Shown here piece after piece: positions 40,098-62,976 of a stretch of 64,000 bases of DNA. This stretch comes from Escherichia coli (GTDB taxonomy: Bacteria; Pseudomonadota; Gammaproteobacteria; Enterobacterales; Enterobacteriaceae). Numbering within the stretch: position 1 is the first letter of the stretch; every line of letters starts with the position of its first letter. Location of the stretch: the NCBI RefSeq assembly GCF_001677475.2, contig NZ_CP015229.1; one strand, 5' to 3'. The translations under genes and the position numbers were made by a program. Below the pieces are notes generated by a model. The model ran no database searches. It was not told the origin of the DNA and was given only the letters and a program-made list of their open reading frames with translations.

Positions 40098-40224
40098 AAC
40101 GGTTGTCAGATTCTCGTTAGGATATGCCTCAACATATGGGGGCATATCTCTGATAAGCAATGCTGTTCATTATCCGTAATCGACATGGTTTAGCAAATTG
40201 AATCGCCCCGGCTGGGGCGATGGC

Positions 40225-53902: not shown

Positions 53903-54094
53903 TTAAAGTCCTGCCGGTATTTCGTTATTATTAGTGTGAGTAGTTTTATCTACCGGATAACAGTTACCGGGAATTTTTTGTTCTGCTGCTGCAGCCATGC
54001 ATTCTTTCATTGAACCGTATAAGCCAGTCACCAGCTCAAGAGATTCGCCGGAAACAAGATAAACTGTCAGAACGAGTGCAAATGTTGTATTCAT
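53903..54094 (-). CDS. small membrane-anchored protein (kil-position), unknown function
   Basis: 63 aa with N-terminal hydrophobic helix; start overlaps upstream gene stop (ATGA). Confidence 0.55.
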   Translation of the reverse strand: MNTTFALVLTVYLVSGESLELVTGLYGSMKECMAAAAEQKIPGNCYPVDKTTHTNNNEIPAGL

Positions 54095-54279
54095 TGTTTA
54101 TATCCTTTTTGCAGCAGGTCCAGACGAGCCAGCATTGAAGGAATGCATACTTCATTTAACAGGTCCTGCTCGAGTTTTCTCTGCTTAATGGCGTCTTCAA
54201 TAAATGTTTTGTCTCCAGTGATAACGCCAATTTCGAAACGAAGTTCAGACGTGCTGGCATTACATGATAACTTTTCCAT
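54091..54279 (-). CDS. small hypothetical protein (kil-position)
   Basis: 62 aa from MEKLSCNASTSEL with GAGGA SD 9 nt upstream; the track's 97-aa version lacks an RBS and overlaps an inverted repeat. Confidence 0.55.
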   Translation of the reverse strand: MEKLSCNASTSELRFEIGVITGDKTFIEDAIKQRKLEQDLLNEVCIPSMLARLDLLQKGYKQ

Positions 54280-54296
54280 TATCGCGTCCTCAACAA

Positions 54297-54444
54297 TGAA
54301 TTTTGTGATGCGGTGCCTGGTGCCTCCAGGTGACGTTAACCAGTTAACAATTAACGCAGGATACAGAGAATCCACCCATAACACTGTTTTTGGTTTTTAC
54401 TGTTCCGCGTGCGCTGAGCCGCATTCACCGCATCACAAAATTCA
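54297..54444. repeat. perfect 19-bp inverted repeat pair (tgaattttgtgatgcggtg / caccgcatcacaaaattca) flanking a 110-bp palindrome-rich spacer
   Basis: Arms at 54297-54315 and 54426-54444 checked base by base; spacer contains cctggtgcctccagg and gttaaccagttaac palindromes. Confidence 0.85.
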
Positions 54445-54856
54445 CTTTTAAAAAAGGGCGGCAGAGCAGTCACGGAGTAAAACTGATACCGCCAAATGTC
54501 ACCAGAATATTGATAACAGAGGGCGTTGTAGCGGGGTTGTCACTTAAGCGTATGGTCAACCTGACAACCCGGTGTCCTCAACGGGGAAAGGCGTCCCTCC
54601 CACCCCCGCCATACTTACCGCCGCGCCATTTCGCGGGTCGCCACAACCGGAAGCGCACGGTCGAATTAAATTTAACGACACCGTGCAGTGAGACGAACTT
54701 CGCCGTGCGCTTTCGTGTTGTGTGCCTGCTTTTAACCACGTCAGGCGAGGTGGTTTCCGTCATTCCCCAACGACAGGAAATCTGTATAATCTGGGTATCC
54801 CCAACGATCCAAGGAAATCATATGACAGAGCAAAGAGCACAAGCAGGTGATGGTGT

Positions 54857-55392: not shown

Positions 55393-55608
55393 TCAGTAGT
55401 TTTCAATCACTCGCGAAACGTTTAATGCCGCGCTTTTTGCCAGAGTGGTAATATCCTGCTCCGCTGACACCAGTTCTTTAGAGAGGCGCTCTTTGTAGTC
55501 AGCGGCCTGCTTCAGGTCATTAATGGCGCGTATCTTTCCGCACATCCATTCGTAAATTTCATCCTCGGTATAGTCTGGTGCGATGATGACGGGTTCTCGT
55601 TTCTGCAT
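55393..55608 (-). CDS. hypothetical protein
   Basis: 71-aa ORF MQKREPVIIAPDYTEDEIYEWM…; hairpin gccggag…tccggc between it and the convergent 2-TM gene. Confidence 0.5.
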   Translation of the reverse strand: MQKREPVIIAPDYTEDEIYEWMCGKIRAINDLKQAADYKERLSKELVSAEQDITTLAKSAALNVSRVIENY

Positions 55609-55637: not shown

Positions 55638-55766
55638 TCAGCCGTTAGATTTTGCCGAACTGGAAAGCGCCTGTTTAAACTCACTGAAGCTGAGAGCTTC
55701 TTCGCCTTCGGCAAGGTCTTCGAAGTATTCTTCGTAAGCCTTTTCCATGATTGCGTCGAAATCCAT
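55638..55766 (-). CDS. small acidic hypothetical protein (42 aa), ydaF-position
   Basis: Hand translation MDFDAIMEKAYEEYFEDLAEGEEALSFSEFKQALSSSAKSNG; starts 2 nt after stop of upstream gene; not in track (<60 aa). Confidence 0.5.
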   Translation of the reverse strand: MDFDAIMEKAYEEYFEDLAEGEEALSFSEFKQALSSSAKSNG

Positions 55767-55767
55767 A

Positions 55768-56010
55768 TCACTCACCTGAATTTCTTTCCAGCCAGCGACG
55801 AGCGCCAGTTTCGGTTTTAAACGTTTTACTTTTGGTATACGTCATCGCGGTGAATGTGCCGTCCTGGTTGGGAAACACGCCGTACACCAGAGATTCGTTG
55901 TTGCCAAGATCGATAGTATCCATGTTGACCTCATTTCCCCTTAACGCTGGGGTAGCGGAACTAAAAACCTGCTGCGCTGTTATACAAAGTGTTCCCGCCG
56001 TCATGTTCAT
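55768..56010 (-). CDS. small hypothetical protein, ydaG-position
   Basis: 80-aa track ORF; real start may be the internal Met (MDTIDLGNNESL…). Confidence 0.45.
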   Translation of the reverse strand: MNMTAGTLCITAQQVFSSATPALRGNEVNMDTIDLGNNESLVYGVFPNQDGTFTAMTYTKSKTFKTETGARRWLERNSGE

Positions 56011-56126
56011 ACGCCTCGGGCTGGCTACTTAATCCCTGACCACTACCGGGTAACTCTAGGTATTGCCCTGTATTGTGTGGGACGGGATGGGTTGGTATGG
56101 GAAAACTATAGGAAATGCCTAATTGC

Positions 56127-56147
56127 TTGTCAATAGGCTATGCCTAA
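56127..56147. promoter_or_regulatory. operator-like site, downstream copy of 21-bp inverted repeat flanking repressor gene
   Basis: ttgtcaataggctatgcctaa is the exact reverse complement of 56772-56792; additional tgcctaat half-sites at 56114-56124 and 56160-56170. Confidence 0.6.
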
Positions 56148-56241
56148 TGATTTGGGTGCGACCTAATAGGTGATGGTTTGTGGGAGAGGTAGTAGGAGTT
56201 AACTAACGGGAACTAGGAATTTCCCGTCGGACCATATAAGT

Positions 56242-56718
56242 TTAAGTTCCTGTCTTGGTGATGTTCTGGCTTTTCCGTTTTGATTCTTGATTTTTCAGAT
56301 AGTTAGCTACCTTCATTTCCATTGCGGCAATGTAGGCGCGAACGTCATGATCAACCCAACTAGGCTCCGTAGCATTTCCAGATAAGAGGAAAGCCACAAT
56401 TGCTCTTTTTTCATCAGAGGCGGCTTGATAAAGGCTGTTTATGTCTAAAAGTTCACTTTTTGTATCTGAAGTGGATGGGGTTGGTATGGGGTATTCGTTA
56501 AGCCCCCAATGCTCTGGACCAACCACATCAGAAAAGAAACGCCATAGTTCTGGAAGTTTGTCTTTACTTATCGAACCTTTCTTAATCCAGTCATGGATTG
56601 ATGGTGGTTGGACTTTGAAATGACGTGCGATTTCCGCCTTTGATTTGACGGCTCCTGATGCAATTTTTTTGTTAATGGCCTGCTCTATCGCTCGGCCTAA
56701 GTCTTTACCACTAAGCAT
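56242..56718 (-). CDS. prophage repressor, RacR-like (HTH, no S24 peptidase domain)
   Basis: 158 aa with N-terminal HTH (KAEIARHFKVQPPSIHDWIKKG); divergent from Cro-like gene; same length and position as Rac RacR. Confidence 0.75.
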   Translation of the reverse strand: MLSGKDLGRAIEQAINKKIASGAVKSKAEIARHFKVQPPSIHDWIKKGSISKDKLPELWRFFSDVVGPEHWGLNEYPIPTPSTSDTKSELLDINSLYQAASDEKRAIVAFLLSGNATEPSWVDHDVRAYIAAMEMKVANYLKNQESKRKSQNITKTGT

Positions 56719-56771
56719 TGCTTAATAGTCTCCTATGCGCATCGCGTTAGGCAATACCTACTCTCGAAGCG

Positions 56772-56792
56772 TTAGGCATAGCCTATTGACAA
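56772..56792. promoter_or_regulatory. operator-like site in divergent repressor/cro promoter region
   Basis: ttaggcatagcctattgacaa plus neighbouring ttaggca and attaggctaagcctaat near-palindromes between repressor and cro-like genes. Confidence 0.6.
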
Positions 56793-56842
56793 TCACATTA
56801 GGCTAAGCCTAATATTATTGTGTGTTTTTTGGAGTTCATTCG

Positions 56843-57166
56843 ATGAAAAAAGATAACTATTCATTCAAACGAGCTTGTGCTGTTGTCGGTGGGCAATCAG
56901 CAATGGCTAGGCTTTTAGGTGTATCTCCTCCAAGCGTAAATCAATGGATCAAAGGTGTACGTCAGTTGCCTGCTGAGAGATGTCCTGCGATTGAACGAGC
57001 AACAAAAGGTGGTGTCCTGTGTGAAGAACTTCGTCCTGATGTTGATTGGACATACTTACGACGCTCGTCATGTTATTCGCAGAATATGTCGATGAAGCAA
57101 CCAAATGACGAAAACGATCATACCCGAAGCATCAAGAGGCAAATGATTCATGAAAATCAAACATGA
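56843..57166 (+). CDS. Cro-like HTH regulator (YdaS family)
   Basis: 107 aa from ATG with GGAG SD; HTH ARLLGVSPPSVNQWIKGVRQLP; divergent from repressor. Confidence 0.75.
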   Translation: MKKDNYSFKRACAVVGGQSAMARLLGVSPPSVNQWIKGVRQLPAERCPAIERATKGGVLCEELRPDVDWTYLRRSSCYSQNMSMKQPNDENDHTRSIKRQMIHENQT

Positions 57167-57575
57167 GCATATCCGCATGGCGATGAATGCCTGGGCATAC
57201 CCTGATGGTGAGAAAGTTCCTGCAGCTGAAATAGCCCGGACTTATTTCGAACTGGGAATGACGTTCCCGGAACTGTACGACGACAGCCATCCGGAAGCCC
57301 TGGCCCGTAATACCCAGAAAATTTTCCGTTGGCTGGATAAAGACACCCCTGATGCTGTTGAAAAAATGCAGGCTCTGTTACCGGCGATCGAAAAGGCGAT
57401 GCCGCCTTTGCTGGTGGCCCGTATGCGCAGCCACAGTTCTGAGTATTACCGTGAGATTGTCGAACGGAGGGATCGGTTGGTGAAAGATGTCGACGATTTT
57501 GTTGCGTCAGCGGTTGTTTTGTATGACCAGATGAATCGCGGCGGCCCGGCAGGAAATGCCGTGGTGATGCACTAA
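57150..57575 (+). CDS. YdaT-like (CII-like) regulatory protein
   Basis: 141-aa ORF immediately after the Cro-like gene with overlapping start, as ydaS-ydaT in Rac. Confidence 0.65.
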   Translation: MKIKHEHIRMAMNAWAYPDGEKVPAAEIARTYFELGMTFPELYDDSHPEALARNTQKIFRWLDKDTPDAVEKMQALLPAIEKAMPPLLVARMRSHSSEYYREIVERRDRLVKDVDDFVASAVVLYDQMNRGGPAGNAVVMH

Positions 57576-62576: not shown

Positions 62577-62820
62577 ATTCATTCCGTATGGGAATTCCCA
62601 TATCGGGCAAAAACGGTTTGCTGTAAAGCGAGAGTTAAGTAGAATTGCTGCGGGTGCTTGAGGCTATCTGCCTCGGGCATGCCGCCGTAAGGCAGACAGA
62701 GAAAAGCCCCAGTTAACATTACGCGTCCTGCAAGACGCTTAACATTAATCTGAGGCCATATCTATGACTTGCACACGTAGGTTAGCCTCTTACGTGCCGA
62801 AAGGCAAGGAGAAGCAGGCT

Positions 62821-62976
62821 ATGAAGCAGCAAAAGGCGATGTTAATCGCCCTGATCGTCATCTGTTTAACCGTTATAGTGACGGCACTGGTAACGAGGAA
62901 AGACCTCTGCGAGGTACGAATCCGAACCGGCCAGACGGAGGTCGCTGTCTTCACAGCTTACGAACCTGAGGAGTAA
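62821..62976 (+). CDS. hok: Hok/Gef-family type I toxin (HokD/RelF-like)
   Basis: 51 aa MKQQKAMLIALIVICLTVIVTALVTRKDLCEVRIRTGQTEVAVFTAYEPEE; AAGGAG SD; in-frame upstream ATG at 62764 gives a 70-aa mok-like extension. Confidence 0.85.
   Translation: MKQQKAMLIALIVICLTVIVTALVTRKDLCEVRIRTGQTEVAVFTAYEPEE

Follow-up and report, generated by a model that had tools for sequence, protein, structure and literature searches.

A perfect inverted repeat around racR probably marks both early promoters and their operators in a Rac-type lambdoid prophage

The repressor gene of an Escherichia coli prophage is bracketed by a perfect 21-bp inverted repeat, one copy of which lies in the divergent repressor/cro promoter region and the other beyond the 3' end of the gene. 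What is the repeat for, and what does the downstream copy belong to? We suggest, with a probability of roughly 85%, that the inverted repeat marks pR and pL, the two early promoters of a lambdoid prophage of Rac type, together with their operators. Positions in the text and in Table 1 are those of the window, that is, the whole 64-kb stretch of DNA that was analysed.

In the window lies a lambdoid prophage whose immunity region is of the Rac type, with racR and genes resembling ydaS/cro and ydaT/cII. The product of racR scores 246.8 bits against the NCBIfam equivalog NF049929 (cutoff 200), and the gene is annotated as racR in an E. coli genome of 100% identity. A Pfam search with RacR gave nothing significant and a PDB sequence search with a RacR profile gave no relative. 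The AlphaFold2 model of RacR has two helical domains (pLDDT 80.7), and its top Foldseek matches in the PDB are all XRE/cI/HipB/Cro HTH domains, though weak (best E = 0.06). We did not find an S24 peptidase domain in RacR of the window using Pfam or NCBIfam; such a domain is present in distant homologues that share its N-domain and operators. The gene order on the + strand after racR, itself on the − strand, is the ydaS-like gene, ydaT and an O-like initiator gene (phrog_391). This is the lambdoid layout, with the repressor divergent from a cro-like gene that is followed by cII-like and replication genes. Rfam gave no hits in the immunity region itself, and no tRNA was found near the integrase end of the prophage.

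Table 1. Genes, operators, promoters and other features in and around the immunity region.
Feature	Position	Strand	Details and basis
racR, 158-aa prophage repressor, no S24 peptidase domain	56242..56718	−	ORF; NCBIfam
ydaS-like cro gene	56843..57166	+	annotation; phrog_35 (transcriptional repressor)
ydaT (CII-like) gene	57150..57575	+	phrog_163
YdaT box, ATGATTCATGAAAATCAA	57143-57160		identical to footprinted Rac YdaT box (PMC11879457)
Right arm of repeat	56772-56792	+	OR2 (56772-56786, 1 mismatch) plus pR −35 TTGACA (56786-56791)
OR1, perfect palindrome TTAGGCTAAGCCTAA	56798..56812		0 mismatches; overlaps pR −10
OR3, TTAGGCAATACCTAC	56747..56761		2 mismatches; racR promoter region
Degenerate fourth OR-side palindrome, CTAAGCATTGCTTAA	56711..56725		3 mismatches; around racR start codon
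pR (ydaS/cro promoter)	56786..56815	+	−35 TTGACA, 18-nt spacer, −10 TAATAT; 10/12 match
Left arm of repeat	56127-56147	−	predicted OL2 (56133-56147) plus pL −35 TTGACA (56133 down to 56128)
Predicted pL	56105..56133	−	−35 TTGACA, 17-nt spacer, −10 TATAGT; predicted +1 near 56098; 11/12 match
Predicted OL1, ATAGGAAATGCCTAA	56108..56122		2 mismatches; overlaps pL −10 and spacer
Candidate weak OL3, TTGGGTGCGACCTAA	56152..56166		3 mismatches; 19 bp from OL2
Hairpin between racR stop and OL, candidate racR terminator	56205..56228	−	8-bp stem in MFE structure
Predicted pL leader, ~175 nt	55924..56098	−	5' end C-rich and G-poor
ydfA/ydaF-like DUF1391 gene, first gene of leftward operon	55768..55923	−	annotation; phrog_751
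ydfB-like gene, leftward operon	55638-55766	−	annotation
ydfC-like gene, leftward operon	55393-55608	−	annotation
DicF sRNA, farther down leftward operon	54456..54507	−	Rfam RF00039, 77 bits vs gathering score 48
dicB-like ORF, leftward operon	within 54091-54384	−	annotation

The repeat was confirmed. TTAGGCATAGCCTATTGACAA has two exact copies in the window, one on each strand, and no match in 100 dinucleotide-preserving shuffles with up to 3 mismatches allowed, so that none is expected by chance. A repeat search extended the pair to 29-nt arms that are 90% complementary and 614 nt apart, with a single 158-aa ORF between them. The left arm ends 95 bp past the racR stop codon (56242-56244), close to the 100 bp first estimated. 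The related motifs reported on either side are also present (tgcctaat at 56116-56123, attaggctaagcctaat at 56797-56813). Scanning for TTAGGCNNNGCCTAA with at most 2 mismatches gave six sites in 64 kb against about 2.4 expected; five of them fall inside the immunity region, where 0.03 would be expected in 800 bp. Exact TTAGGC/GCCTAA hexamers are similarly concentrated, with 7 of the 16 in the window located within 56100-56820 (Poisson P ~2e-11). A terminator-like match at 56797-56813 in a promoter scan was discarded, being nothing more than the OR1 palindrome.

The 21-mer combines two elements, a 15-bp RacR operator of the type TTAGGC-n3-GCCTAA and, fused to it, a TTGACA −35 box. An operator is present, as the original prediction had it, but the repeat as a whole is an operator plus a promoter element. 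Its perfection is incidental, because only 10 of 39 viral contigs with the inverted pair have identical 21-mers; the other 29 differ in the n3 spacer or in the last base. Perfect inversion around a single gene might also suggest that the arms are terminal inverted repeats of a small racR cassette, mobile or invertible (IS/MITE-like ends or recombinase sites), and the immunity module is indeed mosaic, with a junction adjoining the left arm. That junction coincides, however, with the predicted transcription start, outside the repeat and not at its outer edge. No transposase or recombinase lies between the arms, the arms differ from each other in 29 of the 39 pairs, their separation lies anywhere between 0.6 and 2.8 kb, with unrelated genes in between, and the second palindrome at fixed spacing beside each arm suits operators, not transposon ends. 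Neither racR in both orientations between fixed arms nor target-site duplications flanking the arms were seen. We consider this origin of the repeat extremely improbable, and have rejected the mobile-element reading along with the terminator reading.

The right-hand unit can be compared with experiment. In strain K-12, the (T/A)TAGGC-n3-GCCTA(T/A) repeats of the racR-ydaS intergenic region bind RacR in EMSA and DNase I footprinting, and ChIP-qPCR has been published too (PMC5700373, PMC9638921). The lowest RacR concentration protects the ydaS promoter region, and the racR promoters are footprinted at higher concentrations (PMC9638921). The K-12 ydaS promoter has the same hexamers, TTGACA/TAATAT, mapped by primer extension and −10 mutagenesis (PMC9638921). 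For K-12, experiments have established that RacR binds and represses at OR, and where pR starts. Between the window and K-12, 35 of 36 half-site positions in OR are identical. The pR hexamers of the window overlap OR1 and OR2, and several partly symmetric operators span pR and the racR promoter. The degenerate palindrome over the racR start codon is identical in sequence in K-12, where it is the published 'O3' and the off-target site of C.Csp231I (PMC9638921); in other genera this −7 site at the repressor start codon is only 1-2 mismatches from consensus.

The left copy is, as read from the sequence, part of a predicted leftward promoter pL that mirrors pR and points from racR into the ydfA-ydfB-ydfC-DicF-dicB operon, with a start site probably near 56098. 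Both arms have a TTGACA −35 with a well-spaced −10, and pR and pL face outward. It should be noted that we take promoter status from position and conservation, because a promoter scan of the region was no richer than shuffles (2 promoter-like matches vs 2.7 expected). The same OL1, OL2, −35 and −10 are found in K-12 Rac, where the pL core is identical at 41 of 43 positions and the adjacent spacer at 13 of 30. The candidate OL3 lies in a block that is 84% conserved with K-12 and has 2 mismatches in the version of phage ON470595; it is confined to the E. coli lineage, is not kept in other genera, and was rejected as a firm third operator. The predicted pL leader is common to heteroimmune prophages, and some sequence matches to the window cover only 55900-56100. 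RNA folding gave no significant structure for the leader (z = +1.0) or for the spacer between racR and OL (z = −1.18). The hairpin in this spacer has one G:C to A:T compensatory change in the alignment with K-12; its assignment as a racR terminator is tentative because the tail is not U-rich.

The pL unit, with O2 fused to the −35 and O1 25 bp away over the −10, is kept in 13 independent loci from Escherichia to Burkholderia. This phylogenetic footprint covers repressors of 54-92% protein identity and includes S24-fusion repressors and beta-proteobacteria. The four half-sites and the −35 and −10 boxes stand out with the highest information content, whereas the n3 spacers and flanks carry almost none. 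In every locus, the unit faces away from the repressor gene and comes after any moron genes in between. Among viral contigs with the RacR N-domain, 67 of 68 have a pL unit (60 with both units flanking the gene and 7 more with pL) and none has a unit elsewhere than at the flanking positions, in a set that was chosen by the DNA element itself and hence has one unit per locus by construction. Two heteroimmune loci are without RacR motifs. In L026, the leader is shared up to about 56099, after which come two copies of TACCCATGGGTA, 25 bp apart, that match the TACC-n4-GGTA sites of its own repressor/cro intergenic region. L025 has TGAGAAAACTCAA both at the pL position and in its own repressor/cro intergenic region. 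In both, the operator sequence changes together with the repressor at OL and OR alike. The downstream copy might have belonged to some other functional element in related phages; it is always found at the leftward promoter position, where heteroimmune phages put their own operator.

Published expression data point in the same direction. Lowered racR expression brings an increase of about 40-fold in ydaF, ydaG, ydaE and racC and of more than 70-fold in kilR, ydaC and ralA (PMC6765115, PMC11014345), and zygotic induction of the Rac recombination genes is cited in PMC5917428. The leftward genes could respond to RacR depletion by an indirect route, through YdaS/YdaT or read-through, and one published model has kil silenced by Rho termination inside racR (PMC4150792).

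The left copy could also be a relic of promoter duplication, or a promoter outside RacR control, in which case its likeness to OR would reflect ancestry and not binding. Of the 21 positions, 18 would be constrained anyway in a strong promoter beside an old operator. Against this, the half-sites of OL1 and OL2 persist in different genera, whereas the n3 spacers and flanks vary at random; those of OL1 are unneeded for promoter function, yet retained. The heteroimmune operators at the OL position and the derepression of leftward genes upon a drop in RacR also argue for an operator, and we judge a relic very unlikely. The original interpretation as OL/OR-type operator sets flanking an immunity gene is supported by the identity of RacR, the published OR footprints, the outward promoters and the 25-bp spacing kept in homologues. 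The further suggestion that the repeat defines the immunity specificity of this prophage needs revision; the specificity is the widespread Rac type and not peculiar to this prophage, RacR being 92% identical to K-12 RacR.

We suggest that the two units work as follows. In brief, each would consist of O2 (TTAGGC-n3-GCCTAT, 15 bp), with its last base fused to TTGACA, and O1, 25-26 bp away over the −10, a layout of operator sites that can be read directly in both units. pR would drive the ydaS(cro), ydaT(cII) and replication genes rightward, and pL, 95-135 bp past the 3' end of racR, would drive ydfA-ydfB-ydfC-DicF-dicB and recombination genes leftward. In the lysogen, RacR on O1 and O2 at both promoters would exclude RNA polymerase. 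RacR is presumably dimeric, with one dimer per palindrome, and probably cooperative on adjacent sites; this mode of binding, occupation of OL, and the activity and +1 of pL are what we infer. Autoregulation of racR would proceed via OR3 and the degenerate site over its start codon.

Beside or instead of occluding pL, OL might mainly loop with OR across the roughly 640 bp enclosing racR, in the manner of the lambda CI octamer, which would tighten pR repression and tune racR autoregulation. The operator sets are inverted and just 639 bp apart centre to centre, lambda and CP-933P offer precedents, PaaR2 octamerises (PMC8630535), and the separate helical C-terminal domain in the RacR model could mediate oligomerisation. 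However, OL2 and OR2 are between 591 and 2809 bp apart in the 13 loci, with scattered fractional turns, although phase matters little for loops >500 bp. Our literature search turned up no RacR oligomerisation data, and the near-consensus promoter under OL suffices to explain its conservation. We regard looping as unlikely to be the main role of OL and, because the OL-OR helical phase is not conserved, make no claim for it.

The OR half of this switch is already published. The OL/pL set was found in no paper, though it is an expected lambda-like feature; a literature search with subscription journals, EcoCyc and RegulonDB outside its scope gave no description of a RacR OL/pL, no direct binding, footprint or reporter data for it in any Rac-type phage, no genome-wide RacR binding data and no sbcA-type leftward promoter mutations. 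The predicted OL/pL completes the map of the Rac-type switch and leaves concepts unchanged, as it follows the expected lambda design. Published work on RacR, whose gene is essential in K-12, explains the toxicity of RacR loss via YdaS/YdaT and the silencing of kil via Rho. A RacR-operated pL, if true, would provide a direct route from RacR loss to the inhibitors of cell division, kilR in Rac and DicF and DicB in the window, and to recET. RacR would then bind in two regions some 640 bp from each other, and the prophage should be homoimmune with Rac-type phages. For annotation of pL/OL in Rac-type prophages we propose the rule TTAGGC-n3-RCCTATTGAC, followed 25 bp on by TTAGGC-n3-GCCTAA.

More broadly, we speculate, at somewhat less than even odds, that the TTAGGC-n3-GCCTAA operator/promoter cassette is an old portable cis-module conferring one immunity specificity over many phage lineages, and that a RacR-controlled pL, not only Rho termination inside racR, silences kilR and recET in K-12 Rac and DicF/dicB in the window. 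In such a module, O2 would be fused to the −35, O1 would cover the −10, and the proximal operator would surround a leaderless start codon. If true, temperate phages of gamma- and beta-proteobacteria have preserved it intact while exchanging the sensor domain of the repressor (RacR-type C-domain or S24 peptidase). Repressors of the 'MPK...VTANDWLNG' family, with no demonstrable homology outside the HTH, appear to use the same cassette; hhalign did not demonstrate homology between them and RacR (probability 0.6%, E = 0.1).

Among the closest known systems is the OR of K-12 Rac (Krishnamurthi 2017, PMC5700373; Wisniewska 2022, PMC9638921), which has the same repressor family, consensus and pR hexamers as the window. 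These papers cover the intergenic region and the racR start only; OL1, OL2 and pL are unmentioned, with 0 occurrences of ydaF, ydaG or sieB. The prophage in the window is also distinct from Rac: its dicBF left arm resembles that of Qin, and its replication module is another one. Phage lambda likewise has a repressor gene divergent from cro, a multipartite OR that covers pR together with the promoter of the repressor gene, a further set of operators at pL past the 3' end of the repressor transcription unit, O1 and O2 about 24-25 bp apart, and a leaderless repressor mRNA; moron genes may lie between the repressor gene and OL (as in L023), compare rexAB. Unlike the lambda repressor, RacR is without the S24 autocleavage domain, so that induction by the RecA-CI route is impossible. 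Its operators are 15-bp palindromes with a 3-bp spacer, whereas lambda sites are 17-bp; at OL, two sites are clear and a third, weak one is confined to E. coli, and OL and OR are about 0.64 kb apart in the window, compared with 2.3 kb in lambda. In addition, K-12 YdaS is reported not to repress racR.

The PaaR2/YdaS system of CP-933P (Jurenas 2021, PMC8630535) belongs to a cryptic lambdoid prophage that has ydaS-ydaT in its right arm and the promoters PR933P, PRM933P and PL933P. Here, the −35 and −10 of PL933P are identical to those of PR, OL1-3 lie downstream of the repressor operon, and repressor control has been shown by reporters (PMC8630535). CP-933P differs from the window in its repressor (PaaR2), its operators (GTTTAGTAA-type repeats) and a toxin-antitoxin pair between repressor and PL. 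In the DicA/DicC system of Qin, the same ydfABC-dicF-dicB operon follows the repressor gene directly and is driven by a PL-like promoter under repressor control; dicBp is derepressed 22-fold in a dicA deletion. Qin shares the ydfA coding region with the window; the leader up to about 56099 is common to the window, L026 and K-12 Rac, and not shared with the Qin-like L025. The repressor and operators of Qin are different, being of the TGAGAAAACTCAA type in L025.

The perfect 21-bp inverted repeat noted around the repressor gene is present. TTAGGCATAGCCTATTGACAA and its exact reverse complement lie on either side of a 158-aa ORF, racR, and the left arm ends 95 bp beyond the racR stop codon. No further copy was found in the window with up to 3 mismatches, nor in 100 shuffles. 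A repeat search extended the pair to 29-nt arms that are 90% complementary and 614 nt apart. The shorter motifs reported on both sides belong to a family of 15-bp palindromes, TTAGGC-n3-GCCTAA. Six palindromes with at most 2 mismatches occur in 64 kb, five of them inside the 0.7-kb immunity region (0.03 expected there), which also holds 7 of the 16 exact half-site hexamers of the window (P ~2e-11). Outside the prophage there is a lone operator-like TTAGGATATGCCTCA (2 mismatches); chance alone would give ~2.4 sites of this quality per 64 kb. A 13-nt sequence, GGGTTGGTATGGG, occurs as an exact direct repeat at the predicted pL start and inside racR; it lacks conservation in K-12 and is probably a chance match.

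Features of the window and of comparison loci (L numbers); mismatches are to TTAGGC-n3-GCCTAA
Feature	Position	Strand	Remark
TTAGGCATAGCCTATTGACAA	56772-56792	+	
Reverse complement of TTAGGCATAGCCTATTGACAA	56127-56147		
racR	56242-56718	−	
OR1	start 56798		0 mismatches
OR2	start 56772		1 mismatch
OR3	start 56747		2 mismatches
OL2	start 56133		1 mismatch
OL1	start 56108		2 mismatches
Weaker palindrome	56711		3 mismatches; over racR start codon
Weaker palindrome	56152		3 mismatches
Predicted pR	56786-56815	+	TTGACA-18-TAATAT; promoter scan
Predicted pL	56133-56105	−	TTGACA-17-TATAGT; promoter scan
Hairpin	56205-56228	−	ACGGGAA...TTCCCGT
GGGTTGGTATGGG	56089-56101, 56478-56490		
ATGATTCATGAAAATCAA	57143-57160		
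TTAGGATATGCCTCA	40117-40131		
DicF sRNA	54456-54507	−	Rfam RF00039, 77 bits
dicB-like ORF	within 54091-54384	−	leftward operon
rne 5' UTR element and SraB	4297-4633, 6494-6662		mark host chromosome at window left
sok antitoxin RNA (hok/sok-type module)	62652-62826		prophage right arm; hokD annotated in identical strain
RacR N-domain–S24 fusion, L020	3501-4208		
RacR N-domain–S24 fusion, L021	3501-4208		
RacR N-domain–S24 fusion, L013	1268-1948		
RacR N-domain–S24 fusions, L014, L016, L017			
'MPK' repressor, L047	7387-8085	+	
'MPK' repressor, L069	6123-6818	−	
'MPK' repressor, L079	4638-5075	−	
'MPK' repressor, L083	4155-4673	−	
HSDR_N protein, Klebsiella L023	3137-4291		between racR and OL pair
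PLD-nuclease-like protein, Salmonella L022	3153-4427		after racR
DUF6694 protein, Salmonella L022	4601-5401		after racR
racR module, L027	2505-3211		ON470595.1

A 1.3-kb query around the repeat matches E. coli 08-00022 at 100% identity and K-12 Rac at 86%; the annotations under it are racR, a ydaS-like HTH protein and a member of the YdaT family. Against the NCBIfam RacR equivalog, whose cutoff is 200, the repressor reaches 246.8 bits, and its identity to K-12 RacR is 92%. The genes to its right are one cro-like (phrog_35), one CII-like (phrog_163) and one for an O-like replication initiator; those to its left share the racR strand and comprise a DUF1391 gene (ydfA/ydaF-like), ydfB, a ydfC-like gene, DicF and dicB. 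From this gene content and the RacR identity, the locus is a lambdoid prophage whose immunity is of the Rac type and whose dicBF left arm is Qin-like. ATGATTCATGAAAATCAA encloses the ydaT start codon. It matches at every base the 'YdaT box' that DNase footprinting showed in K-12 Rac (PMC11879457) and is presumably the activating site for a reverse, pRE-like racR promoter.

A promoter scan over 1.9 kb gave only two sigma-70-like sites, exactly on the arms and facing outward. Each 21-mer is therefore a 15-bp operator that shares its last base with the first base of a −35 box, plus two more bases. A second operator, 25 bp off at pL and 26 bp off at pR, overlaps the −10, and the two units are mirror images in the order O2, −35, O1/−10. 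Most of the perfection of the repeat stems from its make-up, 12 of the 21 positions being operator half-site and 6 being −35. Since only 10 of 39 viral contigs with an inverted pair have identical 21-mers, the others varying in the n3 spacer or the last base, the exact arm identity in the window is incidental.

The OR half of the operator hypothesis is established biology for the 92%-identical K-12 repressor. [quoted passage not shown] DNase I footprints define operators O1-O3 with the consensus (T/A)TAGGC-n3-GCCTA(T/A), and primer extension places PydaS at TTGACA/TAATAT, exactly the pR hexamers of the window (PMC9638921). We found no mention of binding sites downstream of racR in the RacR literature searched. 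When RacR expression is lowered in K-12, ydaF, ydaG, ydaE and racC rise ~40-fold and kilR, ydaC and ralA >70-fold (PMC6765115, PMC11014345), and zygotic induction of Rac recombination genes is mentioned, as cited work, in PMC5917428. Both are hints compatible with pL control; indirect routes fit too.

Silencing of kil has been ascribed to Rho termination inside racR (PMC4150792). The first ~30 nt of the predicted pL transcript (56069-56098, − strand RNA) hold ~14 C and 1 G by manual count. K-12 Rac and the heteroimmune prophage L026 share this very C-rich, G-poor start, which looks like a Rho-loading (rut) site. If so, it would add a second silencing layer for the left operon. A hairpin between the racR stop codon and OL is a candidate racR terminator; it carries one compensatory change (G:C to A:T) relative to K-12, its tail is not U-rich and its fold z-score is only −1.18.

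K-12 Rac has the same OL1, OL2, −35 and −10, with 41/43 positions identical in the pL core and 13/30 just beyond; at OR, 35/36 half-site positions but 5/9 spacer positions are identical. Diverged homologous loci were gathered from genomes and by exact protein look-up. All enterobacterial loci examined from E. coli, Mixta, Morganella, Proteus, Erwinia, Yersinia, Klebsiella and Pectobacterium carry an operator pair 3' of the repressor gene, and it is found as well in Achromobacter, Burkholderia, Herbaspirillum and one unclassified proteobacterial MAG (L016). The pair lies 61 bp to ~2.5 kb beyond the stop codon, and its two sites are spaced by exactly 25 bp (26 in one locus). TTGAC adjoins the proximal site, in a pL-like unit directed away from the repressor gene. 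Along the consensus of 13 independent loci, ATTAGGC-n3-gCCTATTGAca-n5-TTAGGC-n3-gCCTAataT, information content approaches its maximum on half-sites and hexamers and falls close to zero at the other positions. In loci with extra genes after the repressor, the pair lies beyond them, just as OL lies beyond rexAB in lambda. The genes after the repressor in L023 and L022 occupy the rexAB position and are therefore candidates for defence genes expressed in the lysogen; in L022 the 2.5 kb available held no OL pair.

An exact-pattern scan of viral contigs returned 80 loci. As the element served to select them, information comes only from the second unit and from where it sits. A RacR-type N-domain is encoded in 68: both units flank the gene divergently in 60, seven more have pL and the last has <1 kb of room. 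No operator-promoter unit was found elsewhere in these 68 loci. The phage genome L027 (Escherichia phage vB_EcoS-683R6) has a racR module of the K-12 type, OL/OR sites included; its labels 'repressor protein cI' for ydaS and 'head-DNA stabilization protein D' for ydaF are probably misannotations. MAG contigs labelled Lachnospiraceae, Candidatus Nanosynbacter and Alistipes (L003, L004, L012) hold E. coli-type (100%, 92% identical) or RacR-like immunity regions, and these taxon labels probably reflect binning contamination.

Heteroimmune prophages bear on whether the downstream copy belongs to a different functional element in relatives. L026 and the window have ydfA and its leader in common up to ~56099, where the two sequences part; the neighbouring base, the A at 56098, is 7 nt downstream from the pL −10. 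Beyond this edge L026 carries TACCCATGGGTA twice, 25 bp apart, its repressor/cro intergenic region has TACCGTAAGGTA and TACCTATAGGTA, and it contains no RacR motif. In the Qin-like L025, TGAGAAAACTCAA flanks the repressor gene on either side. Since both hold their own operators there, the downstream position reads, by sequence comparison, as an operator slot that moves with the immunity module, bounded by the predicted transcription start. The operator hypothesis withstands this comparison, which the original prediction had named as a way to refute it.

In the AlphaFold2 model of RacR (pLDDT 80.7), a disordered linker (residues 80-91) joins two helical domains, the N-terminal one with an HTH at about residues 27-47. 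All top Foldseek matches are XRE/Cro/lambda-cI/HipB-type HTH domains (best E-value 0.06), which is suggestive only of such a fold. In E. coli, Pectobacterium and beta-proteobacteria the N-domain (~75 residues, 53-86% identical) is also found joined to S24 domains that are LexA/UmuD-like. These loci have TTAGGC-n3-GCCTAA operators at OR, and at OL too in L020, L021, L013 and L016; in L020 and L021 two small ORFs precede the pair, and in L014 and L017 no OL pair was found within range. The sensor domain thus appears exchanged and the DNA specificity retained. In four viral contigs, operator sets of the RacR type, one OR-like and one pL-like, enclose a gene of another repressor family ('MPKRPPD...VTANDWLNG', 146-233 aa), whose homology to RacR is not significant (hhalign probability 0.6%, E = 0.1, 20 HTH columns aligned). 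At the promoter-proximal operator (window 56711-56725; '−7' sites of L005-L024) the leaderless start codon lies inside the n3 spacer, so the right half-site sets the first codons. RacR proteins, with GCTTAG/GCTTAA, begin Met-Leu-Ser or Met-Leu-Asn; 'MPK' repressors, with GCCTAAG, begin Met-Pro-Lys.

We suggest that RacR would occupy O1 and O2 at pR and pL and block RNA polymerase. Palindromic 15-bp sites point to binding as dimers, and pairwise cooperativity between O1 and O2 is suggested by their fixed spacing, which at ~2.4 helical turns is like that of lambda. OR3 and the start-codon site may serve racR autoregulation. Looping between the OL and OR sets, 639 bp apart, is possible; however, OL2-OR2 centre-to-centre distances span 591-2809 bp among loci with no conserved helical phase, and no RacR oligomerisation data were found in the literature searched. 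With DicF and dicB downstream of the predicted RacR-controlled pL, Qin-type cell-division inhibitors would come under Rac-type immunity, and RacR loss should stop cell division. Profile searches found no S24 domain in the window RacR, so induction cannot follow the autocleavage route of lambda CI; an antirepressor, by analogy with Rem on DicA, is a reasonable guess.

Taken together, OL/OR-type operator sets around the immunity gene, the core of the original prediction, are supported as the standard lambdoid arrangement with Rac immunity type. The OR half is already published; the predicted OL/pL half, not found in the papers searched, is strongly supported by conservation and the heteroimmune swap. 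A PL-like promoter, dicBp, has been demonstrated under DicA in Qin. PL/OL has likewise been demonstrated in CP-933P, a related prophage with a different repressor (PMC8630535).
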